Shown one piece after another: positions 7,262-51,593 of a DNA stretch of 52,610 nucleotides. The notes below the pieces were generated by a model. That model made no database searches, was not told the DNA's origin, and worked only from the letters and a program-made list of their open reading frames with translations. Both the position numbers and the translations under genes were made by a program. Origin of the DNA: a virus (lineage: Duplodnaviria > Caudoviricetes); the IMG/VR virus record IMGVR_UViG_3300017767_000016, positions 1-52,610 of that record; one strand, 5' to 3'. How positions within the stretch are numbered: the stretch's first letter is position 1; each line of letters opens with the position of its first letter.

Positions 7262-10200
7262 TTATCTTTTAACTTGTTTTCTTTCTACTTGTTTTCTTTT
7301 TGTTTGTTTTCTTTTATTTGATTTAGGTTTTTTAGCTTGGGATTCTATTAATCCAACATCCCATTTGCTATACCCTAATGCAAGTGATATTGCTTGCCAA
7401 GTTTCAACATCTTGACGCACAGGTGTAGAAAGGTTATCTAATTTACGTATTACGCGATCTGCAGGTAAATTAGTAGTTGCCGCTATAATTTGCCCAACTG
7501 CTTCAAAAGCAGGATTGTCCAAGCTCACACCTTCAGTTCTCATTTTTTCTCGTGACTGACGATACGTAAATGATCTACCGGCTGAAGCTAGCTTGCTTAT
7601 TTTAGAATCAATTGGAGGTGATAAACTTAAAGCCTCTAAAGCAACCTTCTCATAATTTGGTCTACCACTTTTGTATTGCCTTATTACTTCAAGAACCATA
7701 TTTTTGCCTGTAGCAACAGCAGCACCTGCAAATCCAATACCACGTAGAAGAGAATCAGCAGTGCTATTAGCAATCCTATAATATCTTTTTTCAGTTTCTT
7801 CGTCTTCTTCATCGGTAAACATTAAAGCAAACATTGCAGATTGCAAACTAGAAAATATAATGTTTTGAACAACACTATAATACATTAATTTACTAAGGTT
7901 TGTTTTCCAATCACCTCTACGATTAGCTAAGTCTAAGACAGCTTTTTTACTTAAGCGAGCGTATTGCATAGGGGTATTAGCAAAAGCTAATATAACGCGC
8001 CCTAAACCGCTTGCTTGCTGCATTGAAATACGGTCTGGTCTTGATGATTGCTGTGTTTCTTCAGCAACTTCCTGAAAATCTAAAAACGCTTTATCAGCTG
8101 CCTCTTGTTCTGTCATACCCTCTTTTATGTATCGCTTTAATCTGTTGCGATAAAACGAAGCACCACCCATAGCGATTGCATGAGAGTCAGCAAGCTGTGT
8201 TGGCAAGAATCCTTTCTTAAGTATCGATGCTATTACAGACCTAACAGGATTTGTACCCGATTCTGCTGCCTTAGCAATTTCGTCTGCATTTACATCTGTT
8301 TTTAATCCTGATCGTCTTTGCTTAAGAAAATCAGAGTTGAATAAGAACGTATAGTCTTTCCAAAACTGTGGTTGATTTACAAATGCTGCGCCCGCAGACA
8401 ACGGATTATTATCGCTAAAGTTTATAAAGTTAACCATTGATAGCTGCTGCAATAATGCTGATCTTGAGTTAAAGAACATAATAGCGCCAACAGAATCATT
8501 AACCCAGTTTATTAAAGAATTTGTAAGTTTATTTGCTCCAGCTGGTCTTCTTCTACCAGTCTCCATTCTGTAAAGAATATCCTCCAATGCTTCGGTATAG
8601 CTTTCCCCAAATGCAGCCTTTAACTTATTCATTGTTTTGTCGGTAAAGAAAGCGTCTTTAGCTGCTTGCCACGGTTTTAAGTACTCAGATCTTTCAGTTT
8701 TGTTCACATACGTTAAAAGATCAGTAGTCATTGAACCGGCATCCCAACCATTATCGGGCTCAGGGTAGCCCATAATAGATATACCTTGTACGTTTTGAGC
8801 AAACGCCAATAAATCTTCATTACCTTTAACAAGTTTTACGTGAGGTGCAATATCTTTCTTTTGCATACCAGGGACAGTATAACCTAAGCTATTCCATATA
8901 TATATTCTTACTGAATCCTCGTTTGTAAATCCTGTTTCGTTTTTCCTTGAAAGACGGGTAGGCGTTCTGCGTATTAACTTTTTAAGTTCTCTAAAGTCTG
9001 CCAGGCGCTTTTGCTTCGCTGAATCAAATTTTCTTATCGCCTTACCGAATGGGTCAAATAAGTTTTCTTTTAAAAACTTTAAATCGTTATTACCCTGCTT
9101 GCCTTTGCCAACCATATAGTACATAAGACCCGCAAAATCATCAGCTGAAGGTGGTATAAAAAATCTAAATCTACCTTTATTTTTACCAAGCATTGTAGCA
9201 ACCTTGTCAGATATTTGTTCGCGTGTGCCAAACCCAGTTGCTCGTGCAATCACTCTGTTAAATTCAGGAGCAGCTTTTGAACTAAGCTTTTCTGTTATTT
9301 CTTTTGGATTTAATGGTGTTAATCTTTCTTTTATACCGGTTTCATCATATCTAGATTGCTCGCTACCTACTTGTTTATATCCTAATTTAGTTAGTTCATT
9401 ATCTGTTTGTTTTGAAACTAATGCTACTTTGCTGTTTTCTAAATTTTTGAAAAGCAATTCTCTACTCACTAGCTTATCACTAATTAAGTATGACATGCTC
9501 ATACGTGCTAGCAATGAGGATGGGGTCATGTGCTCATATACTAAATTGTCAAAGTTACCTTTTTCAATGTAAGAAACATTACCCAATAATTTTAGGGCTG
9601 TCCGCATGTCCCCGGTTTCTAGCTGAAGATATGTTCTTGCCATATCAATATCGCCTATACTTTTAAAATAATCAATTCTAGACTTAAAATAATCTAGCGC
9701 TTTTTTAGATTGAATATCAAACTCTGGCTTAAACTCCTCAACACCCATTCTAAATTTTTTATTAGTAGGATCTTTTAAAGCAGTAATTTGCCCTTCGCCA
9801 ATATATATTCTGCCATTTTTTATTTTAAATACACCTTCAAATTCTGGAAACTTTTCAATTATTTTGCTATACACATTATCCCAAGCCTGTTTGTTTGTTG
9901 TAAAATACATAGAGCCTTGTCTTATGTTTCTACCTTCAAATCTTACAAAGTCTATAAATCTATCAAACATTTGGTCTTTTGGAGCATTGGTAATGTAATC
10001 TAAAGCAAAATTAATTTGTTCTTTGGCATAGGCCTGGCCGCTGGTTGTTAATTTTCCTTTTTTATTTATTAACCTTAATGTTAATCCCCCAGAAACAGTA
10101 GCAATACCGTCTATTACAGAAATTAAATTAAACTGATTATCGTTTATATATTCTATTTGAGTTTGTCCATATTGCTTTGTCCTGTTAGGAGGAAACTCAC

Positions 10201-13200
10201 TTTTTAATTTATCAATTATACCTGTCACGTAGTTTTCAGGTACATTTAATTTATTAGCAATACTTAAAGAGCTTTCGCCTTCCTGTATTAAATTAACAAG
10301 CTTTTCAGTTGGTACCTCTTTAATTTTTATACCTTTATTAGTTATTGAAAACTTTTGCCGTAAATCTCTATTTACTTTTAATGCTATTTTAGCCGCTTCC
10401 TGCTCTGTATAAGGCTTTGCTTGAATTACCCCAGGTGTTGCATCATACGCTGTTTGCAATCCTATATTAGCACCTAACTCTGATTTTCTGGCTGCTAGCG
10501 TGGAAGGGGAAACAGTGTAGCCAAGGATATCTGACATTGACTGATCGCCTACAGGCCCAGTAAAGAACGCTTGTATTTGTGCATCAGTAGGATTTAATAC
10601 CTGATAAAGTTCAGGACCATCAGCGTCATTTTCTGTATATACTCTGCCAAGAGCGGTGTACTTATCTATTTCTGCTTGCGTAGTTAATCTTTTAACATAC
10701 TTAGTAAAAATCTTTTGCGTATCTGGTAATAACCTTTCAATTTGTACCCAATAAGAAATAGGCAAGCCTTCTAATAAGTTTTGTTTGTTTTCTATAACAA
10801 AATCTGCTAATTTCTTTTTATTACCTAATGCTTTTTTAACAATAGGCATAAGCTTTTTCTTGTATGAGTCAGTAACAAACTTTCTAAAATCACGGCTATC
10901 TATAGGTGGCAAATCGCCTTCAAAAGTTTCATAAGCTGCTGTTCTAATTTCTTGCGCAAGCTCAGGTGTAATAAACGGTTGACCACCAACAGTAAGCGTA
11001 GACCTTAGCTGTGATTCAAAAGTTTGCTGCTCTTCTGTTAAACTCCTGTCTACAATTTCTTCTATCTGCGCAGACTCTGTGTCTACTGCCTCAAAACTTC
11101 TACCCTCTGTTTCAATGTCTGTAGATACGGTCCTGACTTGCTGAGCATATTTCTTTTTGACATCACGAAGTGCAAAATCAACTATAGGTTTTGACCCAAA
11201 CAAATAACCAAATAAACTTTCGTTTTTAGCTGGGTCAAAGTTCTTTAAAAATCTTTCAGTTATAACTTCTCTAACGTTACTTATAACTTCACTTTTTATA
11301 TTTTCGTCAAGCGAGCCTATATTTTTGTCGGCATTAACAAGGCCTCTTACATATTTACCTATAGCGTCGCCTTCCGCAACTTCATTATATGCATCAAAAT
11401 AATCTTCAGATTTTTTAAAAGCTTCTAGGGTTTTATATTTTGTTTTGCCATCTGGTGTTTGTACAAACTTATCAAATATACCTTTAAGATCTTTTTTATC
11501 AGGTGATACGCTCCTGCTAAACTTAGGTTTTAATCCGCCTTTGTCAAGTAAGTCTTTGATTAGCTCTAGCTTTTGGTCCGCGGATAATGCTTCATATGTA
11601 CTAAACTGACCAGATTTTACTTTATCTTCATTTGCAACATTTGGAAACATCGAGTTTGCCGCGACTTGTACAAAGTCGTATTGATCAAACGGAGATAAAT
11701 CACTTGCAAATATAGGCTTAGGGTCTTTGAATATTTTACTTGCTTTATTTGTAAACTCTTTAAACTGCGGCGATTTACTTTCTGGTGATACAATTAATTT
11801 TCCTTTTGCACCTTCTTTTGCTAATTTTTTAATACCTTCTCCCCATTTACCGGTTTGAAAACTTTTATTGTAGTTTTGGATAAATTTTATAACATCTTTG
11901 CCTTCGTCAAAAGTTATATCTTCAGTAACATTTTTACCAAATAATTTTTCAAAAAATTCTTTTATTTTTTGTATAAAAGATTTATTAGGCGTTTTAAATG
12001 CGCCATTAGCAAGCCCTTCGGCATAAAGAGTTAAACTTTCTTCCCATGCGTTCCCCTGTTGTTGCTCTGTTGTGGCTTCCTGTAAATAACTTGATAATCT
12101 ATCAAAATAATCAGAACTTACAATTTTATCTAAGCCTTCTTGTTTTATAAGTTCATCATGCAAAGCTTTTCCTAAATTAGTCTGCGCTTCAGGGTTATTT
12201 TTAATGGTTTGGTATAATACGGCATGTAAAAATTCGTGATCAGCTGTTGTTACAACTTTATCTTTAAGTTTTTGTTCTTTATTTATAAGTATTTCTTGTT
12301 CATTAGTATTAGGGTTTTGATATATTACCCCATATTTTCCATCAAACTTTTTTGTTCCTTTTGTTTTTGCTACGTAATCCTCAAGCTCGGATTGCTTATC
12401 AAAAGATCTTATTTTTAAATCCGGAATAACACCCTGCTCTTGTGCTTTTTTAAGCATTTCTTCTCTTTCAGCAATGCTTTGTCCAGCTTTATCTAGGTCT
12501 ATTGAATTTTTTATTTTAACTATACCGTTTGAAATTGCTTTATTTTGATTAGCAATAATTCCTTTAGCAAGCCCATACTGTTGCCCAGTTATTTTTTTAT
12601 CATTATAAGATTTTTCTAAATCTTTTAGCTTAGTTTGATTTTCTTCTTTTTGTTTTATGAAATTATCAAGCTCATTCCTTTGCTCTTTTGAAAGACTAGA
12701 TGTTTTTATATATGCGTCTTCAAGAAATGTTTTTAAAGATTTTTCAACATTTTGTATTTGTAAATCAATTGCGCTTCTATATGATTTATCTTTATTTAAA
12801 GATCTTTGTTTTTGCAAGGTGCCTATAGCGTCAATATGGTCCATAACTGTTTTCATGGACCCTTCATCACTTCTCAACGCTTTAGCTACACTAGATGGGC
12901 CAGCAATAACACCTGAGCCTATAAATCCACCTAAATAGCTTTCTAAGCCATCGGCGCTTGCCATCGCACTAAAGCCGTCAGCAATAGCATTATTTAAAGA
13001 TTTACCTTCAGCTAAACTAGTGTTTACTACTTCTAATCCAGTTTGAGTTACCTCTGTTATTCCTTCTTTATTTTGTGTACCTAGCAAAGAAACTAAAGGC
13101 TTAAGCCCGCCCGCTCTAGCTGCAATTTGCTTAGTAATTCCTTTAAAACCTACATATTCTAAACCACTTGCTAACGTGCCAAGAGCCAATGGAACCGCCA

Positions 13201-14062
13201 TTTCAGTTTGGTTATTTTCTACCAACTTTTTAATAGCATCAGGGTCATCGCCATATAATCTTTCGGCTTTTTGCACGTTGTAATCTATGTACATTGGCGC
13301 CGTGATTTGAGGCCCTAATGAAGCGCCTCTTGTTAAAACGGCGGGCACCATAGTAGTAACTAAACTACCAACTACATTTGTTATGCCATTAAATAGCTCA
13401 GGCCCTGAAGTAAACTTAACATTAAAAGGGTCTGTTATATCAAATTCTTCAACAATTTTACCCGCTCTTAAACGCTGAGATACTAGATTTTCAACTTCTT
13501 TATATTTGTCTACAATATATTTTTCAGCTTCTTTTCCTAACTCTGCAACATTTATAATATCACCCTTTTTGTATTTTTTATCTTTTCCAATTAAAAAATC
13601 TGCAGCATCTCCACCAGCTACGTCTTTAATGTAATCTACAGCAGCTCCCTTAACGCCTTCCCATGCCTCTTGCAAACCTAATGGAATATTTAAAGCAGGG
13701 TTAATGACCCCTCCTGCATATGTAAAAGGCTCTTCTGGTCTTTCTCTTTCGCTTTTAGCTAATTCACCTATATAATCCGAAAGCATATCATATTGGTCAG
13801 AAGATAGCTTTTGTGATTCAGTTTGTTTTGTTGGTTCTGGAGCTAAATCCAATAAAATATTTTCCGAATCTAAATCCATATTCGGTTGATCGGGCACTGC
13901 AGTTTCCTCCACAACCGCACCCGGAGTTGTGGGAGTTGTCTTTCCCGGCTCAATAGTTTTTAAGCCTGCTTTTTTAATATATTCCTCTAAAGAAAGATTT
14001 GAGCTTGCGGCCGCCTGTTCGACATCCTGCAAAGAATATTCTTTTCCGTTTAATTCAAACAT
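7262..14062 (-). CDS. giant internal virion/ejection polyprotein (2266 aa) with a zincin HExxH motif, a sigma region-2-like segment and an HTH
   Basis: Last of three internal-virion-type genes after the tail genes; HEFLH at aa 609; FDPAKNESLFGYL at aa 942; EGESSLSIANKLNVPENYV at aa 1261. Confidence 0.7.
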   Translation of the reverse strand: MFELNGKEYSLQDVEQAAASSNLSLEEYIKKAGLKTIEPGKTTPTTPGAVVEETAVPDQPNMDLDSENILLDLAPEPTKQTESQKLSSDQYDMLSDYIGELAKSERERPEEPFTYAGGVINPALNIPLGLQEAWEGVKGAAVDYIKDVAGGDAADFLIGKDKKYKKGDIINVAELGKEAEKYIVDKYKEVENLVSQRLRAGKIVEEFDITDPFNVKFTSGPELFNGITNVVGSLVTTMVPAVLTRGASLGPQITAPMYIDYNVQKAERLYGDDPDAIKKLVENNQTEMAVPLALGTLASGLEYVGFKGITKQIAARAGGLKPLVSLLGTQNKEGITEVTQTGLEVVNTSLAEGKSLNNAIADGFSAMASADGLESYLGGFIGSGVIAGPSSVAKALRSDEGSMKTVMDHIDAIGTLQKQRSLNKDKSYRSAIDLQIQNVEKSLKTFLEDAYIKTSSLSKEQRNELDNFIKQKEENQTKLKDLEKSYNDKKITGQQYGLAKGIIANQNKAISNGIVKIKNSIDLDKAGQSIAEREEMLKKAQEQGVIPDLKIRSFDKQSELEDYVAKTKGTKKFDGKYGVIYQNPNTNEQEILINKEQKLKDKVVTTADHEFLHAVLYQTIKNNPEAQTNLGKALHDELIKQEGLDKIVSSDYFDRLSSYLQEATTEQQQGNAWEESLTLYAEGLANGAFKTPNKSFIQKIKEFFEKLFGKNVTEDITFDEGKDVIKFIQNYNKSFQTGKWGEGIKKLAKEGAKGKLIVSPESKSPQFKEFTNKASKIFKDPKPIFASDLSPFDQYDFVQVAANSMFPNVANEDKVKSGQFSTYEALSADQKLELIKDLLDKGGLKPKFSRSVSPDKKDLKGIFDKFVQTPDGKTKYKTLEAFKKSEDYFDAYNEVAEGDAIGKYVRGLVNADKNIGSLDENIKSEVISNVREVITERFLKNFDPAKNESLFGYLFGSKPIVDFALRDVKKKYAQQVRTVSTDIETEGRSFEAVDTESAQIEEIVDRSLTEEQQTFESQLRSTLTVGGQPFITPELAQEIRTAAYETFEGDLPPIDSRDFRKFVTDSYKKKLMPIVKKALGNKKKLADFVIENKQNLLEGLPISYWVQIERLLPDTQKIFTKYVKRLTTQAEIDKYTALGRVYTENDADGPELYQVLNPTDAQIQAFFTGPVGDQSMSDILGYTVSPSTLAARKSELGANIGLQTAYDATPGVIQAKPYTEQEAAKIALKVNRDLRQKFSITNKGIKIKEVPTEKLVNLIQEGESSLSIANKLNVPENYVTGIIDKLKSEFPPNRTKQYGQTQIEYINDNQFNLISVIDGIATVSGGLTLRLINKKGKLTTSGQAYAKEQINFALDYITNAPKDQMFDRFIDFVRFEGRNIRQGSMYFTTNKQAWDNVYSKIIEKFPEFEGVFKIKNGRIYIGEGQITALKDPTNKKFRMGVEEFKPEFDIQSKKALDYFKSRIDYFKSIGDIDMARTYLQLETGDMRTALKLLGNVSYIEKGNFDNLVYEHMTPSSLLARMSMSYLISDKLVSRELLFKNLENSKVALVSKQTDNELTKLGYKQVGSEQSRYDETGIKERLTPLNPKEITEKLSSKAAPEFNRVIARATGFGTREQISDKVATMLGKNKGRFRFFIPPSADDFAGLMYYMVGKGKQGNNDLKFLKENLFDPFGKAIRKFDSAKQKRLADFRELKKLIRRTPTRLSRKNETGFTNEDSVRIYIWNSLGYTVPGMQKKDIAPHVKLVKGNEDLLAFAQNVQGISIMGYPEPDNGWDAGSMTTDLLTYVNKTERSEYLKPWQAAKDAFFTDKTMNKLKAAFGESYTEALEDILYRMETGRRRPAGANKLTNSLINWVNDSVGAIMFFNSRSALLQQLSMVNFINFSDNNPLSAGAAFVNQPQFWKDYTFLFNSDFLKQRRSGLKTDVNADEIAKAAESGTNPVRSVIASILKKGFLPTQLADSHAIAMGGASFYRNRLKRYIKEGMTEQEAADKAFLDFQEVAEETQQSSRPDRISMQQASGLGRVILAFANTPMQYARLSKKAVLDLANRRGDWKTNLSKLMYYSVVQNIIFSSLQSAMFALMFTDEEDEETEKRYYRIANSTADSLLRGIGFAGAAVATGKNMVLEVIRQYKSGRPNYEKVALEALSLSPPIDSKISKLASAGRSFTYRQSREKMRTEGVSLDNPAFEAVGQIIAATTNLPADRVIRKLDNLSTPVRQDVETWQAISLALGYSKWDVGLIESQAKKPKSNKRKQTKRKQVERKQVKR

Positions 14063-20062: not shown

Positions 20063-23000
20063 TTATTCGCCGTCTTCTTGTATTGTTAAAGTAAATTGTG
20101 TTATATCTGTTGATCCAGATATTGATCCCAGTGTTCCTATACCCTGCGTTAAAAATTCTTTGCTATCAAATCCTCCGGTCTGTAATTGTTGATTCCAGTC
20201 TTCATGATTGCCTTTTATAAAGTTGTAGTACATTCCCTCTTTGTCTTTGAACTCCAAAACTTTGCCTTCTTGTAAATTTGTTTTAATTTTAGGAGCAACC
20301 CATTCGCTACTTCCTTCGTATTTAATTGTTTTAAAACTTTTTACATTTGAGGGATTTGCATTAAGCACTAACTTAACAGTAGACTTATATTGAACGCCAT
20401 AAAAATTATTTCTAGTTTCATTGCCATGACTCCATATAACACCATTTTTAAATGTATAATATTTATTGTTTAATGAAACTCCAGCTTCAGCAATAAACGA
20501 TTTTCTAGTTGGCCAACCTTCAAGACCTTGCATATAGCTGACTGTATCATCATTAAAAGATAAATTATAACAATTAGAATTATCATCATAATTACCAATA
20601 ACATTTGTAGCGGTGCTTAGCTTATCTTTAAAATAATCTCTCATTCCCTGTGCAGATATTTCTTCTAAGCCATTTCTTGAAAGCCTTAAAACAACACCTC
20701 TGTTTTTATCTGTAAAAAACGCTCTAAACCCATACGACGCAAAGCTTTCTGGATTTTTTGATATGCCATATTCACCAACATATGGTATAGTTTGGCCCAG
20801 CACATTGTTATTTGCTGTTATATTAGCATTACCATCTGCATTAAATAAAGCATCCTTTTGAGCTAATACTTTTAAACATTTGTCTTCACATAATGTTATA
20901 AGATCAGTATCTCTTGCGTGCAATTTCTGTATAGATCCGTATGCCGGATTTAAATCTTTTGTTATAGGTAAGCCTTGTATAAACTGATTTAAATTATTTA
21001 CACCGGAAGTTGAATTAAATATTTGAGAAAATATAAGCCCGCTTGCTCTTCTTTCTTCTTCATAAGGCTCATCTAAAACTGTAGAAACCTTAACACCTTT
21101 ATCAATAGTAGGCGCATTAAAGTCGTCATTTATTCTGTTAGACTCTACACCATTTCCAAAAGAATAACAATTAAACCAATTTAATATTTTAGGGGTTGCT
21201 GCTTCGGAAACAGGAAAAGCATCAGATGCTTCATAATATATATCTATATCAACAGCTTCTTTCGGCTCTGTTTCAAACACAGAAGGATTAGATGAAGCTA
21301 ATAACTGAAAACTATCTGTAAAAACCTCTTTAACAATTTCAATTCTATCAGAAGTATTTGTGTCTTGCCCTATTTCAAGCCCTCTTTCAAATGGTCTATC
21401 TAAAATTATTTCCATTTGTTTTCTCCAGTTACCAGCTTTTTTAGTTTTTTGCCGTCTATCAAATCTTCTCTCTCTTGATTGTATAAAGTCTTTTATAGTA
21501 TATATCTCGCTTTTTTGATTAGTAGTAACATTAACAAACCTTAATAAAGTGCCGACTTTATTTAAATTGTCGTCTAGCAAAGGCATTGTTTTGTTTACAT
21601 AATGACCATTTGAAAACGCGGTTCCTGCTGAATATCCAATTTGAAATCTATCGCTACCCGCTGTTGGCGGTCCCTTTGTGAATCTAAAATTTCTATCAAA
21701 CCACACTGTAAACTCGGCTTTTGTATCTCTCCAACCTGGTCCATTTTTTGTACTTTTTTTTCTTTCGCCAGCTCTTCTGTCAATTCTATAAGGAATTGCA
21801 TTGCTACTTTCTATAATAACTTGTTTTTCAACGCCTGAAAAAACATCTATAATATTTGTTTTTATATTTGAGTCTCTATTAATTTTAACAAAAAATCTTC
21901 CTTCAAATTCTTCGTTTTTTTCAATCTCATCTTTATAAACAATTATTTCAATTTGGTTTTGACCAGTTTCTATGCCACTTAAAAAATCAGCGTCTTCTTT
22001 TAATGGCGTTTCTAGTGTCACTTTAAATTTATTGCTTGACGTTAACCCTCCGCTCTCAATTTTGTACATAAGAGTTCTTTGTCCGCCGTTAGAATCATTT
22101 TCTATATTTTCTACAATTTTTAAATAATTCGGCGCTTTAAATTCTTTTACAAATTCAGGATTTTTTTCTATGCTTGCTGTAAAAGCAAAAGATATTGCGT
22201 CCGTTACAGGCTGATCACCAGTTCCAATAGTACAGTCTGTTCTGGCCACAGCATTTCTTTTCTTCGCTATAAAATCAGGAGCCTCGTTTGATATATCTAA
22301 TATTTTGTACTTAATTACTTCGTCAGGCATATCTTCAGAGTCATGCTTCTTTTTTAAGTACATATAAGTTTCTTCATATACTTTATTTCTTTCTGATGAT
22401 GGAAAACTAAGCCATATATTGCCATCTTCAGCAAAATAAAATCTATCTAAAGCAAGATTGTAATATTGATTTGAAGTTTCTTTTATGAAGTACTTAAAAT
22501 GGGTTGCCCAACTCGGTGGTTCAGAATTTATTGAGGCAGTAAGCTTATTTTCTTTATCAGCCTCTTTGCTTCCTATTTTTAAAGTAGAGTCTTTAGTAGT
22601 AAATATAGGCGTTTCTCTTCCGTATTTATCTTTCCAAACAATTCCTAATTGATATGTTCTTAAAGATTTTACAGAAGGTTTTGCTAAGCCCCTGTCGCTA
22701 TGTGCTTTTGAATCTAAATAAAAACTTGCAGATAAATTATCTGCTACATTGTAATTTTGCAAATAATTTCCATAAACTATTCTATTGCCTATAATTTCTT
22801 GAGATTTAGCTAAGCGAGGTACATTATCCCATGGTCTTAGTATTTGATTTGACTCAACAACTTTATGTATAAGCTCAGATTCTATTTCTATTTCTCTATT
22901 GTCTAATGGAAGAGTATCTACTGTATATATGTTTGTTGAAACGCTATCTTTATATAATACTTCAATTTCTTTAACGCCCAGAGGAGGAGACTCTAAATTA

Positions 23001-24145
23001 TGCACTCTAAGAAATCGCATATTGTTTTTCATGCCCTCATTAAAACCATCTGTAGAAAGATATCTAAATTTGCCAGGAAAAAACGCCACAGTTGAAAAAG
23101 GAGAAAAAGTTGAATATTGATTATCTTCATATCTCCATCTATACGCAAATCTGCCAAACGAGTTTTCAAATATAGGTTCGCCTTCTTTGAGCACAGTGTC
23201 CCAGGTTAAGTATTCATTTGGCACATTATCTGGAATACTTAAAATTTTAAATCTTGGTATTATAGCACCTGAGCCTGTACCTAAGCTTAATATAACTGTA
23301 GAAACAATTAATTCTTCAGAATTTCCATCTTCATCTACAAAATTGTTTGTCCATGTTATAACATCTCCCACTTTCCAGTTTGGCTTTACATAGTAACTTC
23401 CGTTAAACTCGTACCCTGCAGGTCTTGATTCAAAATCGGGACCACCGTCTACTTCAACCGCAAAATTAAAGCTCTGCGAAATAGAATTTATGCCGGTACC
23501 ATTACCCTCTCTTTTAGAATCTTTTACTTCTACTGAGGGAGCTGTTAAAGGTGACTTTTTAATTACAACAACATCATCTTCAATAAAATCTCTACCGTAT
23601 ATTTCCGTATGAGAAGTGTCACCGCTTAATGCAGTTGCATCTTTAAATTTTTTTATATTTATTGATTTTGGCTCGTTTAAATCATCTGTAAAAAACAGCA
23701 AGCCATCAATAATATTTATACCAGTTATTAAATTATTTTTTGAAAAATTTAAAACATTATTTTTATCTATAAGTATAGGAGATATTACATTAGTAGTTTG
23801 GTCTAATTCTAATATGCCATCCTGATTATCGCCTGTTATAAACCAATATATTTTTTCTTCTTTGTCGTATTTAATAACACCAATAGTAATAGCATTGTCA
23901 AAACCATAATAGTTTGTATCACTGTCATTTAAACCCCATAGGGTATATGTATTAAGGCTTGGATTGTAGGATCTATTAAATATTGCAGTATTGCCCAATA
24001 TGTTTTCTATAGCACCAACATCGCTGCCCTCAGAGCTGGCAACTTGGATGTTTAGCGCGTCTCTATATTGATTATTAGGAATAAGTCTTTCGTCTAGGTC
24101 TTTATTCATTTTCCCAGACGTAAATAAATTCTTAATTTCAGGCAT
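20063..24145 (-). CDS. tail nozzle / phage stabilisation protein
   Basis: MPEIKNLFTSGKMNKDLDERLIP..QYRDALNI and GEYGISKNPESFA motifs; follows the ring proteins. Confidence 0.8.
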   Translation of the reverse strand: MPEIKNLFTSGKMNKDLDERLIPNNQYRDALNIQVASSEGSDVGAIENILGNTAIFNRSYNPSLNTYTLWGLNDSDTNYYGFDNAITIGVIKYDKEEKIYWFITGDNQDGILELDQTTNVISPILIDKNNVLNFSKNNLITGINIIDGLLFFTDDLNEPKSINIKKFKDATALSGDTSHTEIYGRDFIEDDVVVIKKSPLTAPSVEVKDSKREGNGTGINSISQSFNFAVEVDGGPDFESRPAGYEFNGSYYVKPNWKVGDVITWTNNFVDEDGNSEELIVSTVILSLGTGSGAIIPRFKILSIPDNVPNEYLTWDTVLKEGEPIFENSFGRFAYRWRYEDNQYSTFSPFSTVAFFPGKFRYLSTDGFNEGMKNNMRFLRVHNLESPPLGVKEIEVLYKDSVSTNIYTVDTLPLDNREIEIESELIHKVVESNQILRPWDNVPRLAKSQEIIGNRIVYGNYLQNYNVADNLSASFYLDSKAHSDRGLAKPSVKSLRTYQLGIVWKDKYGRETPIFTTKDSTLKIGSKEADKENKLTASINSEPPSWATHFKYFIKETSNQYYNLALDRFYFAEDGNIWLSFPSSERNKVYEETYMYLKKKHDSEDMPDEVIKYKILDISNEAPDFIAKKRNAVARTDCTIGTGDQPVTDAISFAFTASIEKNPEFVKEFKAPNYLKIVENIENDSNGGQRTLMYKIESGGLTSSNKFKVTLETPLKEDADFLSGIETGQNQIEIIVYKDEIEKNEEFEGRFFVKINRDSNIKTNIIDVFSGVEKQVIIESSNAIPYRIDRRAGERKKSTKNGPGWRDTKAEFTVWFDRNFRFTKGPPTAGSDRFQIGYSAGTAFSNGHYVNKTMPLLDDNLNKVGTLLRFVNVTTNQKSEIYTIKDFIQSRERRFDRRQKTKKAGNWRKQMEIILDRPFERGLEIGQDTNTSDRIEIVKEVFTDSFQLLASSNPSVFETEPKEAVDIDIYYEASDAFPVSEAATPKILNWFNCYSFGNGVESNRINDDFNAPTIDKGVKVSTVLDEPYEEERRASGLIFSQIFNSTSGVNNLNQFIQGLPITKDLNPAYGSIQKLHARDTDLITLCEDKCLKVLAQKDALFNADGNANITANNNVLGQTIPYVGEYGISKNPESFASYGFRAFFTDKNRGVVLRLSRNGLEEISAQGMRDYFKDKLSTATNVIGNYDDNSNCYNLSFNDDTVSYMQGLEGWPTRKSFIAEAGVSLNNKYYTFKNGVIWSHGNETRNNFYGVQYKSTVKLVLNANPSNVKSFKTIKYEGSSEWVAPKIKTNLQEGKVLEFKDKEGMYYNFIKGNHEDWNQQLQTGGFDSKEFLTQGIGTLGSISGSTDITQFTLTIQEDGE

Positions 24146-24148
24146 ATA

Positions 24149-25279
24149 TTAGTGTTTAATCCATTTAGACTTACCTCTTAAAGTTTGTGTAAGTTCTTCT
24201 ATTTTAAGATTTGACAAACGTAATTTTGCTTGTCTTATTGCTGCAAATCTTTCTTTTTTAAATCTTGCTACAATATATTCCGGTGTATTTTGTCTAGTTG
24301 ACAATATTGAATGAGCGATGCTTTTATACATAGCCTCTTCTGCAAATTTATGTACAATTTTTTCTTCCGCAGTAGCAACGCCGTCACTTATGTATTTTAG
24401 CGTTACAACTTTATTAACCATATGGCCGGAAAAGAATATTTTACCTTTGATCATGTCTATAAAAAACGACCCATTAGAATTCATATGCTGAGGGTCAGCA
24501 CCGTATCTTCTCCCATGCAGCACCTGGAATGTTCTATTGTCTTCTATATAAAAATCTTTTATAGCGTCCGTGGTTGCATTTTGGGTTTTAAACTTTTTAA
24601 ATGTTTCAGATTGATCAGCTTTTAGCAATTCACCGCTACTGTCAAATAAATAGTTAAATTCGCTGTCTTGTAATAAAGCCGTAGGATTGCTTGTTTTTAG
24701 CGCAGGCATAATAGTATGCTCAATTCCTTTATCGTCACACCAGGTGAGCTTAATGTGGTTCACATAGTCGTGTGGTAGCTTCATTTCAAGACTAGATGGT
24801 ATTTCAATCTCTTGGGATTTTTCGCTTCGTAGCGTATCGTAGCTTAATTCTTGAATTGCTCTTTGAGCAAAAAACAATACATTACTTCTTTTTGCTTTTG
24901 GTATAATTTTTTCTTCACCAACATAGGCTATTATAAAATTATTTACAATATCTTTTAGCGTTAAATACTGATACCCTCCTAACTTGTTTTCTGCATTTAT
25001 TTGGACAATTGTAATTAATAAATCAAGCTTAGGGGCTCCTCCTGATTCTAATACATCTGTATTATTTGTATTTGCATCAAATACTATTGCTCCACCTGTA
25101 TATTCATAATTATTAACATTAATTAAATTACCGTCTACAAATACCTCTAATTCTCCTTTAGCTTGCGGCAAAGGGTTAAACATATCAGTAGTTAAAGGAA
25201 AAGACGTTCTGGCGCCTGTTCCAGTAAAATTAACACTGTTATTATAATAACGCTCGTGTGTTATATTAAATAATGCCAT
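24149..25279 (-). CDS. tail ring / tubular protein
   Basis: LPHDYVNHIKL and LKYISDG motifs; lies between adaptor and nozzle. Confidence 0.7.
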   Translation of the reverse strand: MALFNITHERYYNNSVNFTGTGARTSFPLTTDMFNPLPQAKGELEVFVDGNLINVNNYEYTGGAIVFDANTNNTDVLESGGAPKLDLLITIVQINAENKLGGYQYLTLKDIVNNFIIAYVGEEKIIPKAKRSNVLFFAQRAIQELSYDTLRSEKSQEIEIPSSLEMKLPHDYVNHIKLTWCDDKGIEHTIMPALKTSNPTALLQDSEFNYLFDSSGELLKADQSETFKKFKTQNATTDAIKDFYIEDNRTFQVLHGRRYGADPQHMNSNGSFFIDMIKGKIFFSGHMVNKVVTLKYISDGVATAEEKIVHKFAEEAMYKSIAHSILSTRQNTPEYIVARFKKERFAAIRQAKLRLSNLKIEELTQTLRGKSKWIKH

Positions 25280-25282
25280 TTA

Positions 25283-25978
25283 TTATGCTTTTTCTTGTTG
25301 AGTACTTTTTACTTCTTCAGCAGTCCCCATTTGATATATACTAGGATCTTTTATAGATACACCCGCTAACTGAAGAATTTTTATAACCAATTCAGTTTCT
25401 TCGGATTCATGTAGATGAAAATTTTCGCTACTTGAGCTATTCCAAAGGGCATTTCCATTAACCTCTGTAAAAGCCCACTCAACTTCATTAGGAGCGTTTG
25501 GCTTTTTAATATATTGAAATGTAACGTCTGCGGTTATTTCAGAATTGCCATATACTTTGATTCCACTTGCGCCTCTAGTGTATATAGGAAAATCATTTGT
25601 TGGTTTTGAAAGCGGCGATGAAGTAATGTATAAATATTCGTTTTTATTAACGTGTTCTGCTTCGCTTCCGTTATAAATAACTGAGCCAAGTCTATAAAGA
25701 TCAGACGGCTCTGGCCAATAGTTATTTGTGTATGTAGTTGAACCAGAAGTTTCAAATAAACTTATTTTTTCTTCAAGTATATCAACCATATCCGAGTACT
25801 CTGTGCTATTACCCGGCAATCTGCTAAACTGATTTAAATCGTAAAAATATTGTTCAAATATATCAAGTTCTGCTTGATTGGCGAATAAGTTATATTCAGT
25901 AGGTGATAAATACCCACGCTGTTCTTTATTAAGTATTGCCAATACTCTTTGATATACTGTATCTACACTTATTGCCAT
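25283..25978 (-). CDS. head-tail adaptor / ring protein
   Basis: LNKEQRGYLSPTEYNLFANQA, P.DLYRL, YIKKP, LVIKILQLAG. Confidence 0.7.
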   Translation of the reverse strand: MAISVDTVYQRVLAILNKEQRGYLSPTEYNLFANQAELDIFEQYFYDLNQFSRLPGNSTEYSDMVDILEEKISLFETSGSTTYTNNYWPEPSDLYRLGSVIYNGSEAEHVNKNEYLYITSSPLSKPTNDFPIYTRGASGIKVYGNSEITADVTFQYIKKPNAPNEVEWAFTEVNGNALWNSSSSENFHLHESEETELVIKILQLAGVSIKDPSIYQMGTAEEVKSTQQEKA

Positions 25979-25992
25979 ATTATTTTTTTAAT

Positions 25993-26021
25993 AAAAAAGG
26001 CCCACAAAGTTGTGAGCCTTT
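25993..26021 (-). terminator. intrinsic terminator
   Basis: Minus strand AAAGGCTCACA-ACTT-TGTGGGCCTTTTTT directly after the 26030 stop. Confidence 0.8.
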
Positions 26022-26029
26022 CACAACTT

Positions 26030-26785
26030 TTAAGCCAAACGTTTTTCTATTGTTTGGTAAACTTCAATACCCTCGTCCGTTTTAAAATATGCAGCTAATG
26101 CTGAATATGGATTTTCATCGAATGGTACTGTTATTAATTTTCTATTATTGCTAGCCCAAGCAAATGTTCTTTGATCATTTGAAAGCTTTATAATGCCTTG
26201 TTCGACTGACTTAATACCTATATTTCTAATATTTATATTTTCGTCATTTGCAAGCTCTATTAATAGCCCCGGGTTCTTTTTAGCGAATACCATCAAGTCT
26301 CTTTTAAGCTCTCTAGACGTTAACCCAACGACCTTAGAGCCTAATTCAGTTCTTAGTATTGCTTCGGCTTGATCAACTTCCATGCTCATTGCAATTTCCA
26401 TTGCGTCAAACTCTAACTCTATTTGAGATAGCTGATCTTCCGCTTGTTCTTCTGCATCAAACTCTTCGTAAATTTTACCCTTTCCAGGATGATACAGTGA
26501 TAGTATTTGTTGCAAAACTACTTTTTCTTTAGGTACAGATAAAACACCGTCTGAAAATACAATATGTTCTAATCTTGATTGCCCTTTAAACTCATCTGCA
26601 AAAGGAGTTTTTTGGTTCGCAGTATACTTTATTTCTCTTTCATACCCTAGTTCTTCGTCGTACCACATTATATTTTTTGATGAAATAGTATAAGTTAAAG
26701 GCGACTGATTGCCTAGTAAATAGTATGTTCTGTCTTTTCGCTCCCAACTTTTAACTGGGGCTGTTTTTGTTTCTTTTTTTGCCAT
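26030..26785 (-). CDS. conserved hypothetical protein downstream of the major capsid gene
   Basis: 251-aa ORF between two terminators, with an AT-rich leader. Confidence 0.75.
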   Translation of the reverse strand: MAKKETKTAPVKSWERKDRTYYLLGNQSPLTYTISSKNIMWYDEELGYEREIKYTANQKTPFADEFKGQSRLEHIVFSDGVLSVPKEKVVLQQILSLYHPGKGKIYEEFDAEEQAEDQLSQIELEFDAMEIAMSMEVDQAEAILRTELGSKVVGLTSRELKRDLMVFAKKNPGLLIELANDENINIRNIGIKSVEQGIIKLSNDQRTFAWASNNRKLITVPFDENPYSALAAYFKTDEGIEVYQTIEKRLA

Positions 26786-26806
26786 GATATAATAAAATAA
26801 AAAAAT

Positions 26807-26844
26807 TAAAATAAACCCAGGGCCAAATAAATGACCCCGGATTT
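26807..26844 (-). terminator. intrinsic terminator after the major capsid gene
   Basis: Minus strand CCGGGGTCA-TTTATT-TGGCCCTGG followed by GTTTATTTT. Confidence 0.75.
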
Positions 26845-26855
26845 AATGTAAAATA

Positions 26856-28307
26856 TTAAGCTTTAAACAACATAAAGTTATTAGCCGCTTGAGTTACTAA
26901 ACATCTTTCAGATAAATAGTGAACCTCCATTACGTCAAGGTCAGAAGTTGCTGCCCCACCAACTGAACCAGTAATCCAAGATTTCATTCTTCGATCATCA
27001 GCTTCAGAAGCTTTATAACGTACGTGTAAGAAAGGGCGACGAACGTTTTTACCTAACATTTGATCGTATACAGAAGAAGTACCAGCTGGAACTAATACAC
27101 CTTCAATATCTGAAAACAATCCACGAGTAGATGAGTTGTTTAGATATTTCCAATCAGTTTTGTAAAAATCATACGATCCTCTTCGGAAGCCTCTAAATCC
27201 AAGATTAAGAGCCATATCCTCGCTATTTTCAAAAATACCGAAAGCAGTACCACCAGCACTACCAGCAGAGATATTCGCAAGAGCGTCATCAACTTTTAGT
27301 GTAGATGTACGATTTAAGAAAAGTAAATTTTCTTCAATAGCACCTTGCTTATCTAGCTTTTTAAGTATTTCATCAAAATCAGAAATAAGGTCTGTGGCAT
27401 CGTCAAAAAGTTTTTCAGCTACGTGACCTCTTGCCTGAATAGCCGCGAAGAGCCCTTCGGTACCTGCGGTATTATCAGCTCCCTCAGTTCCTAAAATAGC
27501 GTCTACGCCTCCAGAAGATTTTGCAAATTCTGCTTCAACCATAGTCATTTCTAAGTAGTCTTCAAAGCGAACGCGAGTATCGCCTTCAGCCTTCATGTAC
27601 CATAAATAACCTGATTGCCCTCCTTCACCGGAAACTTCTACCCAGCCAATTTGAGAAGCGTCAGATCCTGATACTTCAAATTTATCTTTAAGAATAATTG
27701 GCTTGTTTGTAAAAGACTCAAATTCAGGTGTTACAGATCCTGTCATTCCCGCTTGGCCCTTTTTAAATTCAGAACCATAAACGAAAAAGCTACAGGTATT
27801 AGCTCCAGCGTCATCAACTGTGTCAAAACCAGTTACAGCCCCAACAGTTGCTCCCCCAGAATAAGGTACAACAGTTAAAGTAGTGTTATCAGCTGCAACA
27901 GCGCTAACATAACATTTGATAATAGTAGGAGTTGTTTGATTGTCTGAAAGAACAATTGTTTGTCCTGCTCTTACTGCATGCGTTCCCGCTGCGGCTCCAT
28001 TAATATCGATTACGCCTGCATTAGTAACAGTTGCTCCTTCATATGCTAAATGCAAACGCCCTTGCTCAGACCAAATAATTTGATCAGAAGCCATAGGCAT
28101 TTCTGCACCTACCATACGTAGGAAAGATGAGATTGAACGATTTCCATAACGCTCTACTTCTTGTTCGTAAAGCTCAGGAAGATATTGTTGGGACCAGTTT
28201 TTGCCGCCGCTCCCGTGAAAGTTTAGGTAATTACCAGCTGTTACAGTTTTACTTGCGTAAGGTGTAAACTCAGGTGGTAAATTGTTACCAAAATCAATTG
28301 CTGCCAT
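26856..28307 (-). CDS. major capsid protein (HK97 fold, crAss/phi38:1-like)
   Basis: Follows portal and scaffold and is followed by a terminator; WSEQGRLH, GTEGLFAAI, HYLSERCLVTQAANNF. Confidence 0.85.
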   Translation of the reverse strand: MAAIDFGNNLPPEFTPYASKTVTAGNYLNFHGSGGKNWSQQYLPELYEQEVERYGNRSISSFLRMVGAEMPMASDQIIWSEQGRLHLAYEGATVTNAGVIDINGAAAGTHAVRAGQTIVLSDNQTTPTIIKCYVSAVAADNTTLTVVPYSGGATVGAVTGFDTVDDAGANTCSFFVYGSEFKKGQAGMTGSVTPEFESFTNKPIILKDKFEVSGSDASQIGWVEVSGEGGQSGYLWYMKAEGDTRVRFEDYLEMTMVEAEFAKSSGGVDAILGTEGADNTAGTEGLFAAIQARGHVAEKLFDDATDLISDFDEILKKLDKQGAIEENLLFLNRTSTLKVDDALANISAGSAGGTAFGIFENSEDMALNLGFRGFRRGSYDFYKTDWKYLNNSSTRGLFSDIEGVLVPAGTSSVYDQMLGKNVRRPFLHVRYKASEADDRRMKSWITGSVGGAATSDLDVMEVHYLSERCLVTQAANNFMLFKA

Positions 28308-28318
28308 TTTTTAAATTT

Positions 28319-29557
28319 TTAATAATTTTTAAGTTTTAGTTTTAATTTAGAAGTATCATCTCCTGCCAAAACTTTTGCTTGCATACCGCTTTGAGTATTT
28401 TTTGTATGCACCCCTCTCGGATCCATATTAATATTCTTAGCTGTTTTCATGCTTTCTTTCATCGCGTCGGATTTTCCTTGCTGATAAAAGTGATTTGCAA
28501 TAGCATCTGCATTCATAGCTGTAAATAATGATTTGTGATAACCTTTTGCGTCACTCATAACCTGGTCCTCATTTAGAAACTTTCTAATGAAATTATTAAT
28601 GTCGCTCTGAGTTGTTTTAACCTCATCTGTGTCTTTTACATTAAATCTGTAGCGTTTATCACCGACTTTATATTCAAAACCTTTGAATTCGTCATTAAAC
28701 ACTTGATCTGTTTTTTGCAAAAATACAGATTTAGCTTTTTCAGCTATTTTTGATGATTCTTCGTTTTCTGTGTTATACCTATTGAAAAAATCTACAGCCT
28801 TTTGTTGATCTTGCGTAAGCCTAGACCCAGCTTTGATTTCTTCATAGTATTTGGTTTTTAGCCCTTCGAGTTCAGACTTAGCGCTCGCTACCTCTTCTTT
28901 GAATGCTAATTTTTTTCTTTTTACATCTCTTTCATCGTCAACTTCTTCATCAAATGTAAATTTATCTTCAATAAGAAAGTCGATTTCTTCGGATGACAGA
29001 TGTGGTTTAGATTGTTGATAATATTCTCTAAGTAATGCAAGATCATCTACATTTGAATAATCTTTGTTAAGCGCTACATAGTCTTCAAGCGATCCGCCCG
29101 TTTCGTTTATAAAATCAACAACCTTTTGAATATTTTCAGGAAGCTCTATACCTTGCTCCTCTTCTTTTTGAAATGCTTCTTCAACTTTTTCAGCAAGATC
29201 TTCAACTTCTTTAATAGTTTCTTCTTGCTCCTCTTGTGCTGGAAGTTCTTCTAAAACCGTTTGTTCAGTTTCTTCTTTTACTTCTTCTTCTTGTCGTACT
29301 TCTTGCAGTTCCACTTCGGCTTTTTCCCCAGCTTCTTCAGCCGGTTCATCTCCGCGTAGCACGCTGCCCTCTGCTTCTTGTTCTTGAACGGCATTTTCTT
29401 CTTCTTTATTTTGTTCGGCGGCAGGAGGCTGATTTAAATCAACTTTATACATACCGTCTTCAAATACAGTGCCTGCTTGTTCTTGCAGGGCTTCTTCTTT
29501 TTCTTGTATTGATAACTCTTCGCTTTCAATAGCTTTTGCTTCAACGTTTTCAGACAT
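28319..29557 (-). CDS. capsid scaffolding protein
   Basis: Very acidic low-complexity N-terminal half; lies between portal and capsid genes. Confidence 0.7.
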   Translation of the reverse strand: MSENVEAKAIESEELSIQEKEEALQEQAGTVFEDGMYKVDLNQPPAAEQNKEEENAVQEQEAEGSVLRGDEPAEEAGEKAEVELQEVRQEEEVKEETEQTVLEELPAQEEQEETIKEVEDLAEKVEEAFQKEEEQGIELPENIQKVVDFINETGGSLEDYVALNKDYSNVDDLALLREYYQQSKPHLSSEEIDFLIEDKFTFDEEVDDERDVKRKKLAFKEEVASAKSELEGLKTKYYEEIKAGSRLTQDQQKAVDFFNRYNTENEESSKIAEKAKSVFLQKTDQVFNDEFKGFEYKVGDKRYRFNVKDTDEVKTTQSDINNFIRKFLNEDQVMSDAKGYHKSLFTAMNADAIANHFYQQGKSDAMKESMKTAKNINMDPRGVHTKNTQSGMQAKVLAGDDTSKLKLKLKNY

Positions 29558-34224: not shown

Positions 34225-34499
34225 TATCTTGATCTTTTTTCCGCAAAGCCGCTAAATGCTTCTTTTTTTTCTTTTTTAGGCTTGTTTAGCAGTATTGATT
34301 TTTCTTCTTCTATTCTATTTAGAATTTCAAACGCATCAAATATTGCAAGCTTTTTAGTTGCTGCCGCATTCTTAAGCCTATCTGCAGAAACATCATCTTC
34401 TGTATTTGTTATGATTTTTTCTTCTGCAACATGTATAAGCTCATCAACCGCCTTGTAGCCAGCTCGGATTATATTCTGTTTCGTCTCCTTGATATTCAT
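34224..34499 (-). CDS. putative terminase small subunit
   Basis: 91-aa helical protein coupled (TAATG) directly upstream of terL. Confidence 0.5.
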   Translation of the reverse strand: MNIKETKQNIIRAGYKAVDELIHVAEEKIITNTEDDVSADRLKNAAATKKLAIFDAFEILNRIEEEKSILLNKPKKEKKEAFSGFAEKRSR

Positions 34500-51102: not shown

Positions 51103-51361
51103 ATCTATTATATCACTGATGTTTAGTGTTTTTTACTTTGTAAGATATATAGGGGTAACGGGTTATATATACATTTTTTTTATAACGTATGCAAAACTAA
51201 AGCTAATTCTTTTTAACCAGCCCCCGTGCCGTTTTACGGTTACTGCCTGGGGTTCTCTGGATCCGAACAGCCGGGTCAACAAGAGTCGGACTCGGAACTC
51301 GACCGGATAATTCAGCTTTTTGTACAGCTGCAGCGCAGCGTGCATAGCAACGCGTATAGCA

Positions 51362-51401: not shown

Positions 51402-51419
51402 AATATTAAATTACCAGTT

Positions 51420-51548: not shown

Positions 51549-51593
51549 ACCTAAGGGCACCGCCCTGCGGTGTATAGCACCGCGTATAGCATT

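Follow-up and report, generated by a model that had tools for sequence, protein, structure and literature searches.

A gp55-like sigma domain-2 fold predicted in an exchangeable cassette of a giant phage protein, and an early promoter-like motif independent of it

Introduction

Whether a phage may carry a sigma-like module inside a giant virion protein, and whether such a module reads the early promoters of that phage, is the question raised by one open reading frame (ORF) of the window, by which we mean the whole stretch of 52,610 nucleotides, from an uncultured marine phage, analyzed here. Phages are known to bring a whole RNA polymerase (RNAP) or a polymerase-modifying enzyme into the cell. 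The ORF in question, located at 7262-14062 on the minus strand according to the ORF list, encodes a protein of 2266 amino acids without cysteine. A first-pass annotation had quoted from it a segment resembling sigma-70 region 2 and had proposed that this segment is injected and directs the host core RNAP to a repeated motif at 51362-52430.

The giant protein and its gene context

Upstream of the giant ORF are the terminase, portal, virion-protein and muzzle-like genes, and downstream of it is an endolysin gene. A crAss muzzle C-terminal domain was detected in the virion gene block (E = 1.6e-13). The giant gene stands at the end of this block, a position where head cargo genes are located, in a podovirus whose muzzle protein is of crAss type, and its 2266-aa product is probably a virion cargo or ejection protein of the polyvalent type. 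Packaging of the giant protein and its DNA-coupled delivery are predicted from this gene position.

Proteins of this family are encoded on at least 549 viral contigs. Neither Pfam nor PHROG contains a family for the whole 2266-aa protein. Sequence searches of the PDB yielded no match at E ≤ 1 among solved chains with the full-length protein, and none with profile A1. When the protein was compared by tblastn with 50,697 phage records, a single weak match to the C-terminal part was obtained, and aa 850-1300 gave no match at E ≤ 1; among the same records and at the same threshold, there was no cultured relative carrying the cassette described below. A virion RNA polymerase was considered and rejected: the 2266 residues hold no D-x-D-x-D motif, and the protein matches neither a solved chain nor a Pfam polymerase family.

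Two features lie outside the variable middle part of the protein. The first is HEFLH (aa 609-613; 12224-12238, minus strand), a zincin-type HExxH motif found by motif scan, whose H, E and H residues are invariant in all seven proteins of alignment A3; no Pfam metallopeptidase model matched the 2266-aa protein at E ≤ 1. The second is a conserved C-terminal region of roughly 650 residues (about aa 1625-2266; 7265-9190, minus strand), common to the whole giant-protein family, with hydrophobic stretches at aa 2064 and aa 2109. This region is 57-86% identical between giants even where their middle parts are unrelated.

Cassette organization of the middle part

The tripeptide K-F-S occurs at aa 847-849 (11516-11524) and at aa 1237-1239 (10346-10354), both on the minus strand, forming the upstream and downstream boundaries of a cassette. 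The same tripeptide ends 14 of 19 homologous pieces of the second module of this cassette, and the K-F-S peptides are probable processing sites. Between the two boundaries, and also on the minus strand, lie three parts: module A (aa 850-982; 11117-11515), predicted from models and structure searches to be a sigma domain-2-like helical domain; an acidic linker (aa 983-1011; 11030-11116) of low model confidence (pLDDT below 50 over model residues 126-164); and module B (aa 1012-1236; 10355-11029), a conserved alpha/beta module that contains RLTTQAEIDK and VENxAQG and is modeled at pLDDT 85-95. A search of the ESM Atlas with module B reached a best score of 0.81 and retrieved no named family; by structure, module B was otherwise searched only within the 451-residue model of aa 850-1300, in which the parts other than module A are barely tested.

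Cassette exchange is observed across the family, in which unrelated middle parts are joined to the shared C-terminal region and the module after module A is of at least two unrelated kinds. Module B is present in 94 of 208 family proteins. Counted per locus, module A occurs in 8 of 80 and module B in 20 of 80, and module A is found in 4 of the 19 related genomes that are at least 90% complete. Most relatives of the giant protein do not have module A, which is thus dispensable. One relative gave a weak match to LPD14 (E = 0.004).

The cassette that follows contains a helix-turn-helix (HTH; aa 1253-1288; 10199-10306, minus strand), which weakly matches Pfam HTH_SB (E 0.07-0.1) and, by VIA-align, the HTHs of resolvases, GcrA and LuxR-type proteins (Z 5.0-5.9). 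It aligns only in relatives that are at least 54% identical. A complete sigma factor, with sigma-2 and sigma-4, was not found in the protein, the sole HTH lying beyond the K-F-S boundary and being kept only in close relatives.

Sequence conservation of module A

The segment quoted in the first-pass annotation is real: EVISNVREVITERFLKNFDPAKNESLFGYLFGSKPIVDFALRDVKKKYAQQVRTVSTD corresponds to aa 925-982 (11117-11290) and lies within 11100-11420. The lack of the WW pair of region 2.3, which had been noted at the outset, was borne out as well, F-G-[W/Y] occupying this place in the module A family. This family is represented by 249 clusters in a set of 1.84 billion proteins. Its core motif, N-F-D-P-A-K-N-E-S-L-F-G-Y-L (aa 941-954; 11201-11242, minus strand), is supported by conservation counts. 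In the form KNFDPxKNESLFG[YW]L it is retained by 64 homologues, and FDP...L..[Y/W] is conserved in relatives. Among 182 aligned module A copies, 154 have F and 26 have Y at position 942, N947 is shared by 167 and G952 by 168, and all 181 residues present at position 953 are aromatic (W, Y or F). Conserved aromatics of this kind could also be mere core residues of the domain.

Sequence profiles of sigma factors do not recover module A. Pfam Sigma70_r2 (PF04542) gave no match at E ≤ 10 to the segment or to pieces of 251 and 601 aa, nor to any of 20 family members, and a six-frame scan of the window with this model was empty, with controls matching in 11 of 14 genomes; these null results are limited by the HMMER filters, which drop many weak matches. 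An hhalign comparison with six E. coli sigma region-2 sequences was not significant (E = 0.26, probability 0.24), the alignment falling in the register proposed by the first-pass annotation. A search seeded with E. coli RpoE to widen this target profile listed at least 120 matches, all at least 86% identical, and brought no gain.

Predicted fold of module A

AlphaFold models were generated for aa 850-1300 (pLDDT 78.6) and for the domain only, aa 850-985 (pLDDT 88.4, pTM 0.80). The helical bundle of sigma domain 2, the fold expected if the initial reading of the segment was sound, is the fold predicted for aa 850-982, and structure searches place sigma domain 2 first. In VIA-align searches of 48,161 solved chains, rows 1-16 for the long model and rows 1-12 for the domain model are all sigma factors, at modest Z values of 6.4-8.1 and with 78-104 residues aligned. 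The best row of the long model is 7d7d_F, the late sigma factor gp55 of phage T4 (Z 8.1, rmsd 3.2, 98 aligned residues, 17% identity), with SigB (Z 7.7) and sigma32 (Z 7.0) further down. The domain model is led by ShbA (Z 7.6, rmsd 3.6, 97 aligned), with SigH (Z 7.1), SigB (Z 7.0) and gp55 (Z 6.4) among the other rows. All Z values for module A are at most 8.1, and values under about 13 are common for helical bundles. Only 27 chains reach Z ≥ 5 with the domain model; three of these are clearly non-sigma, namely two Set2 SRI domains and AcrR (Z 5.3-6.3), and 9n9q_C is unplaced. Foldseek, run against 350,542 chains, ranks gp55 chain 7d7c_F first for the domain model; neither model obtains a PDB row at E ≤ 0.001, the best E values being 0.24 and 0.34.

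Residue-level comparison with T4 gp55

The protein that module A most resembles is T4 gp55. When a profile of 182 module A copies was aligned by hhalign with one of only nine gp55-family proteins, the match covered 34 columns at E = 7.2e-4 and a probability of 26%, pairing KNFDPAKNESLFGYL with HNFDETKYKNPHAYI of the gp55 family and placing the core motif on gp55 N85-F86-D87...Y97-I98. According to the published description of gp55, binding to the clamp helices of the polymerase involves residues E70, D74 and E77, and the base pockets are lined by F86, H95, Y97 and T99 (PMC7892883). In the hhalign register, E70, D74 and E77 pair with positions 925 (D/E in 56%), 929 (40%) and 932 (70%). F86 pairs with F942, which is F or Y in 180 of 182 copies, and Y97 with the aromatic position 953 (181 of 181). 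H95 pairs with 951, and T99 with 955, where T is the commonest residue. Within the register of this 26%-probability alignment, the most conserved residues of the family coincide with the clamp-helix and base-pocket residues of gp55.

These comparisons bear on the possibility that module A resembles sigma factors in structure only, being a helical bundle that serves another purpose in the capsid or ejection channel and has no relation to RNAP. The low Z values, Foldseek E values above 0.2, the lack of a Pfam match, the non-significant alignment with E. coli sigma factors and the presence of SRI domains and AcrR among the matches are all compatible with such a bundle. However, the top rows are filled by sigma factors in both searches of 48,161 chains, gp55 is recovered by two different aligners, and the match to the gp55 profile lies in the structural register, on the functional residues of gp55. 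We consider a look-alike unlikely on balance, though still deserving of attention.

Proposed role of the cassette

The explanation that we favor, with confidence somewhat below even, is that of a modular, head-packed giant protein with a gp55-like sigma domain-2 cassette acting on the host core enzyme. The giant protein would be packed into the head and ejected with the phage DNA. Its layout would consist of a conserved N-terminal part, the HExxH domain, exchangeable middle cassettes bounded by K-F-S, at which the chain may be cleaved, and the conserved C-terminal region. The cassette at aa 848-1237 would open with a very diverged domain 2 of the sigma-70 family. In the cell, module A would dock on the beta-prime clamp helices of the host RNAP through the acidic side of its long helix (E925, N929, E932 and E936), while F942 and Y953 may keep a pocket for a flipped non-template base. 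As infection begins, the cassette would serve as an accessory sigma-like factor of minimal type, or would at the least compete for core enzyme; it is not the reader of the YACGA-N9-GATAATATA promoters described below. It is doubtful, but conceivable, that a widespread group of marine Bacteroidota podoviruses delivers in this manner a gp55-like sigma, freed at K-F-S, so that the incoming genome could use the host core RNAP without delay, at another class of promoter.

The same fold and acidic-helix evidence would equally fit a protein that docks on the clamp helices only to block the host sigma, a virion-delivered mimic acting in host shut-off. Module A is optional and fast-evolving, as expected of a host-takeover accessory, and other cassettes of the family are effector-like, with Zeta_toxin/AAA_33 kinase cassettes in 5 of 16 giants scanned. 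A pure blocker, however, would have no need of the near-invariant F942 and the aromatic residue at 953 in their gp55-like 11-residue spacing, and the few copies injected would hardly titrate thousands of polymerases, which leaves this mechanism rather improbable.

The early promoter-like motif

The repeated motif was found in four copies on the plus strand by motif search: copy 1, CACGA-N9-GATAATATA, at 51375-51397, and copies 2 to 4 at 51607-51629, 51813-51835 and 52404-52426. Its consensus is YACGA-N9-GATAATATA, and the four copies in the window compare with 0.66 expected, none of 100 shuffles reaching four. A small plus-strand ORF begins 23-42 nt downstream of every copy. At the end of the motif is a host-type -7 box, for which the consensus TAnnTTTG has been described (PMC7641319): TATATTTG fits this consensus perfectly, and the other copies have one or two mismatches.

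The relation between domain and motif was examined in the 19 related genomes at least 90% complete, comprising 15 without and 4 with module A. The motif is present at 4-9 copies in 11 of the 15 genomes without module A, and is nearly unchanged in relatives whose giant protein does not have the domain; an HMM scan of the giant ORF in five of the domain-less genomes found no module A. Three of the four genomes with module A have the motif, whereas G042, which holds the strongest domain match (E = 8.6e-26), has none. The co-variation between domain and promoter that had been suggested as a check is not observed, and the early motif is independent of module A.

The earlier proposal that an injected sigma-like module directs the host core RNAP to the early motifs fits several observations: the four motif copies are real and sit just upstream of small ORFs, all three cassette-bearing contigs at least 90% complete carry 5-8 copies, five more distant relatives have neither motif nor module A, and module A, in the gp55 register, keeps residues like those of the base pockets. 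The joint absence follows phylogeny, however, terminase identity being at most 62% for these relatives against 73-78% within the clade, and the helix after FG[YW], which would be the one to read a -10 element, differs by insertions and substitutions among genomes that share the same motif. Together with the domain-less genomes that keep the motif, the domain-bearing genome that has none, and the host-type -7 box at its end, these points make the proposal very improbable.

With the motif independent of module A, the early promoters must have another reader, and the simplest candidate is the host holoenzyme, acting through the -7 box with help at the upstream element. Module B was also considered as a promoter reader and rejected, the motif being kept where module B is absent or has left only a weak trace. 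A second repeat, TATAGCAnCGCGTATAGCA, was considered as a site specific to the domain; only the window, G003 and G051 contain it, and it is uninformative. No gp55-type late promoter set was seen in the gaps upstream of late genes, TATAAATA occurring seven times per strand.

Significance

In the literature searched, we found no description of a particle-carried sigma-like handle on the host enzyme, and the best ten full-text matches listed include no report of packaged or injected sigma factors. If true, delivery of a gp55-like sigma freed at K-F-S would add a third immediate-early route to those provided by injected polymerases (N4, crAss-like) and modifying enzymes (T4 Alt). With 249 clusters of the domain and at least 549 contigs of the giant-protein family, a function of module A would have a bearing on host takeover by abundant ocean phages of Flavobacteriia. 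The negative result is of interest too: in this phage group the early promoter is strikingly conserved, and it needs a reader other than module A.

Comparison with known systems

The virion RNA polymerases of N4-like phages and of the crAss-like phage phi14:2 (gp66, PDB 6VR4) are thought to enter the cell with the DNA and to start early transcription (10.1101/2020.03.07.982082). The giant protein resembles them as a very large protein encoded beside the virion genes of a podovirus, but offers a sigma-like domain in place of a polymerase and its DxDxD motif. A second parallel is found in the polyvalent proteins of phages (Iyer, Burroughs, Anand, de Souza, Aravind 2017), for which a zincin-type HExxH domain has been proposed to process the chain into units (PMC5512222). 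Shared features are the giant multi-domain architecture, an HExxH motif, cassette exchange and the kinases of relatives, whereas no Pfam polyvalent-protein domain was found in the 2266-aa protein of the window; the word "sigma" is absent from the main text of that survey (PMC5512222).

Module A is similar to domain 2 of the sigma-70 family (PF04542; ShbA, SigH, SigB, SigW) in the arrangement of its helices, over 78-105 residues at an rmsd of 2.7-3.9, and the KFEYRRGYKFSTY stretch of E. coli RpoD likewise has an F-D-P loop with an aromatic residue 11 positions later. It differs in scoring below profile thresholds, in having neither the WW pair nor a conserved sigma-4, and in being placed inside a giant protein.

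From T4 gp55 (7d7c and 7d7d, chain F), module A differs in context: gp55 is produced during infection as a free protein of 185 aa, acts together with gp33 and the gp45 clamp and binds the clamp through a C-terminal motif, whereas module A is a cassette within a 2266-aa late protein, with a disordered acidic linker and an unrelated module of 225 aa behind it, and shares only 12-19% identity with gp55. The likenesses concern the domain itself: a predicted fold comprising sigma domain 2 only, for which gp55 is both the top Foldseek match and the top VIA row of the long model; an NFD...aromatic motif with 11-residue spacing (F942/953 corresponding to F86/Y97); and acidic positions at i and i+7 on the preceding helix.

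Sequence and structural evidence for a sigma-like module

Judging from its predicted fold, module A (aa 850-982 of the 2266-aa giant protein) is best described as an embedded, optional and new variant of sigma domain 2, with gp55, the minimal late sigma factor of T4, as its nearest counterpart. The string that the first-pass annotation had read as sigma-like exists as written at aa 925-982 (window 11117-11290), and the AlphaFold models and structure searches agree with that reading. At the sequence level, the whole giant protein matched no Pfam or PHROG family and none of the solved chains, Pfam Sigma70_r2 matched neither the segment nor larger pieces nor any of 20 family members, even at E ≤ 10, and a six-frame scan with PF04542 left the window empty while matching 11 of 14 control genomes. 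An hhalign comparison of 182 domain copies with six E. coli sigma region-2 sequences was not significant (E 0.26), its best alignment falling in the register first proposed. Against a profile of nine gp55-family late sigma factors taken from phage records, the same copies gave E 7.2e-4 (probability 26%, 34 columns), pairing KNFDPAKNESLFGYL with HNFDETKYKNPHAYI.

A homologue search with aa 850-1320 found 64 proteins of 1431-3820 aa, and a profile of aa 850-985 retrieved 249 representative clusters from a set of 1.84 billion proteins; giants of 1200-3966 aa make up the majority of the 150 clusters listed, and the shorter proteins may be fragments cut at contig ends. AlphaFold models were obtained for aa 850-1300 (pLDDT 78.6) and for the domain, aa 850-985 (pLDDT 88.4, pTM 0.80). 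Foldseek returned no match at E ≤ 0.001 for either model; among 350,542 chains it ranked the gp55 chain of the T4 late open complex first for the domain model (7d7c_F, with E 0.34, TM 0.40 and probability 0.80). In VIA-align, which searched 48,161 representative chains, sigma factors occupied rows 1-16 without exception for the long model, led by gp55 (7d7d_F, Z 8.1, rmsd 3.2, 98 aligned), SigB (Z 7.7) and sigma32 (Z 7.0), and rows 1-12 for the domain model (Z 7.6 to 6.4), modest values of a kind that, as the tool warns, is frequent among helical bundles. Just 27 chains reached Z 5 with the domain model, of which three were clearly non-sigma (two Set2 SRI domains and AcrR) and one, 9n9q_C, was not placed. 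The sigma-fold reading carries weight because one small family tops both searches and the two aligners converge on gp55.

Conservation of functional residues

The T4 structural account describes E70, D74 and E77 of gp55 as contacting the beta-prime clamp helices, N13, L54, R57, F86, H95, Y97 and T99 as forming pockets for flipped non-template bases, and A-12 as stacking on Y97 (PMC7892883). Residues were paired following the hhalign register, and conservation was counted over the 182 copies. E70, D74 and E77 correspond to residues 925, 929 and 932 of the giant protein, where D or E stands in 56%, 40% and 70% of the copies, respectively; position 936, which prolongs this helix face, is acidic in 52%. 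F86 corresponds to F942 (F in 154 copies, Y in 26), Y97 to Y953 (W, Y or F in 181/181 residues) and T99 to position 955, where T is most frequent. The aromatic residue comes 11 positions after the phenylalanine in the domain, as it does in gp55 and in the stretch KFEYRRGYKFSTY of E. coli RpoD. Given these pairings and the shared spacing, the best-kept positions appear to be those that a sigma-2 domain requires; the alignment is weak, and the same positions could instead be core residues of the fold.

The early promoter motif and its relation to module A

The window contains four copies of CACGA-N9-GATAATATA, all of them plus-strand (51375-52426), against 0.66 expected by chance; 0/100 shuffles reached four. 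Each copy finishes in a -7-like box and is followed, 23-42 nt downstream, by a small plus-strand ORF; TATATTTG fits perfectly the TAnnTTTG consensus, whose conservation in Flavobacterium and Bacteroides has been described (PMC7641319). A second repeat, GTGyATAGCAnCGCGTATAGCA, a doubled TATAGCA, occurs at 51340-51364, 51570-51594 and 52157-52181 (plus strand), and two of these three copies immediately precede early promoter copies. It recurs in exact form in the related records G003 and G051 but in none of 20 others. A G+C-rich stretch of ~120 nt (51218-51340, plus strand; the genome is 36% G+C) precedes the first early promoter where the late and early gene blocks diverge, and is a candidate for a structured RNA, an origin or a packaging site.

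It had been proposed that module A reads these 40-bp early motifs. Relatives bearing the cassette (module A, an acidic linker and module B), at ~30% identity within it, keep the motif in 8, 7, 5, 5-6 and 5 copies, and five more distant relatives have neither motif nor domain; this joint absence follows phylogeny, since terminase identity is 73-78% within the clade and ≤62% outside it. The informative comparison extends to the wider giant-protein family and uses 37 of its long records, 19 of them at least 90% complete. The motif occurs in 26/37 (16/19 of the near-complete records) and the domain profile matches 7/37 (4/19), a count that may miss very diverged copies, the one in G022 scoring just E 0.06. 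Among the four near-complete records with the domain, three carry 8-11 motif copies each and G042, whose domain match is the strongest of all 37 (E 8.6e-26), carries none. Among the 15 without it, 11 carry 4-9 copies each and the remaining four 0-2; in five domain-less genomes (the records of loci L053, L061, L062, L068 and L082), scanning the giant ORF itself with the HMM likewise gave no domain. The helix after F-G-[W/Y] also varies by insertions of up to ~ten residues among motif-sharing genomes. Domain and motif are thus not coupled, and the proposal is not supported: because the motif persists without the domain and is missing from G042, and because the helix is variable, we conclude that module A does not determine early promoter recognition. 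Module B was likewise rejected as promoter reader, the motif being kept where module B is absent or a weak trace. The G042 match (G042:C1:62385-62738) lies in an open frame at a contig end, apart from the located giant gene (21610-28398).

Genomic context

The window is a phage and spans its whole record: 52,610 bases, linear, with a completeness estimate of 83%. Genes on the minus strand include those for the large terminase and the portal, several structural proteins of the virion, a 1360-aa protein that matches the C-terminal domain of the crAss muzzle (PF25729, E 1.6e-13), tail fibres and an M15 endolysin, and the plus strand carries ribonucleotide reductase genes; the giant ORF (7262-14062, minus strand) has the tail genes on one side and the endolysin on the other. 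A GroEL-like chaperonin (Cpn60_TCP1, E 1e-56) and a protein with a match to a phage co-chaperonin GroES family are encoded at 45045-46616 and 34444-35049 (minus strand). By terminase, the nearest deposited phage is MW202828.1, an uncultured podovirus from a spring (62% identity), followed by Flavobacterium elemo phages (45%) and Cellulophaga and Tenacibaculum podoviruses (32-37%). The syntenic giant of MW202828.1 (L001, 741-12320; 3859 aa) carries a pair of HExxH motifs but no module A; its annotation as a reticulocyte binding/rhoptry protein looks like a mis-transfer. G003 (92,966 bases; loci L019 and L048) carries eight early promoter copies and a giant protein that shares 88% identity with that of the window in the cassette; the terminase of G003 is just 76% identical, and the genomes are therefore mosaic.

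Modular architecture of the giant protein

The giant protein contains zero cysteines, and its HEFLH (aa 609-613) is unchanged in seven aligned relatives. The cassette, made up of module A, the acidic linker and then module B (aa 1012-1236), is flanked exactly by K-F-S peptides (aa 847 and aa 1237); K-F-S also terminates 14/19 homologous module B pieces. The next cassette opens with a helix-turn-helix (aa 1253-1288, window 10199-10306, minus strand), recognized by a weak Pfam HTH_SB match and by VIA-align (Z 5.0-5.9 to resolvase, GcrA and LuxR-type HTHs) and alignable in close relatives only (identity ≥54%). Cassettes are exchanged: module B is present in 94/208 family proteins examined, a different module follows module A in others, and among 80 related viral loci, 8 have module A and 20 have module B. 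A Zeta_toxin/AAA_33 kinase cassette, likely a further host-directed module, occurs in 5/16 giants scanned (P0040, P0045, P0057, P0060, P0075). The C-terminal 650 aa are 57-86% identical between giants even where the middles are unrelated. This region (aa ~1625-2266, window 7265-9190, minus strand), the truly conserved part of the family, matches no known family and has two hydrophobic stretches, at aa 2064 and 2109.

In the mechanism we propose, the giant protein would be packaged, cut at K-F-S and injected, whereupon the sigma-like domain would bind core polymerase. The modular architecture fits the pattern of the polyvalent proteins named by Iyer and colleagues, in which a zincin domain is proposed to split the chain into units (PMC5512222); the window's giant, however, matches no Pfam polyvalent-protein domain.
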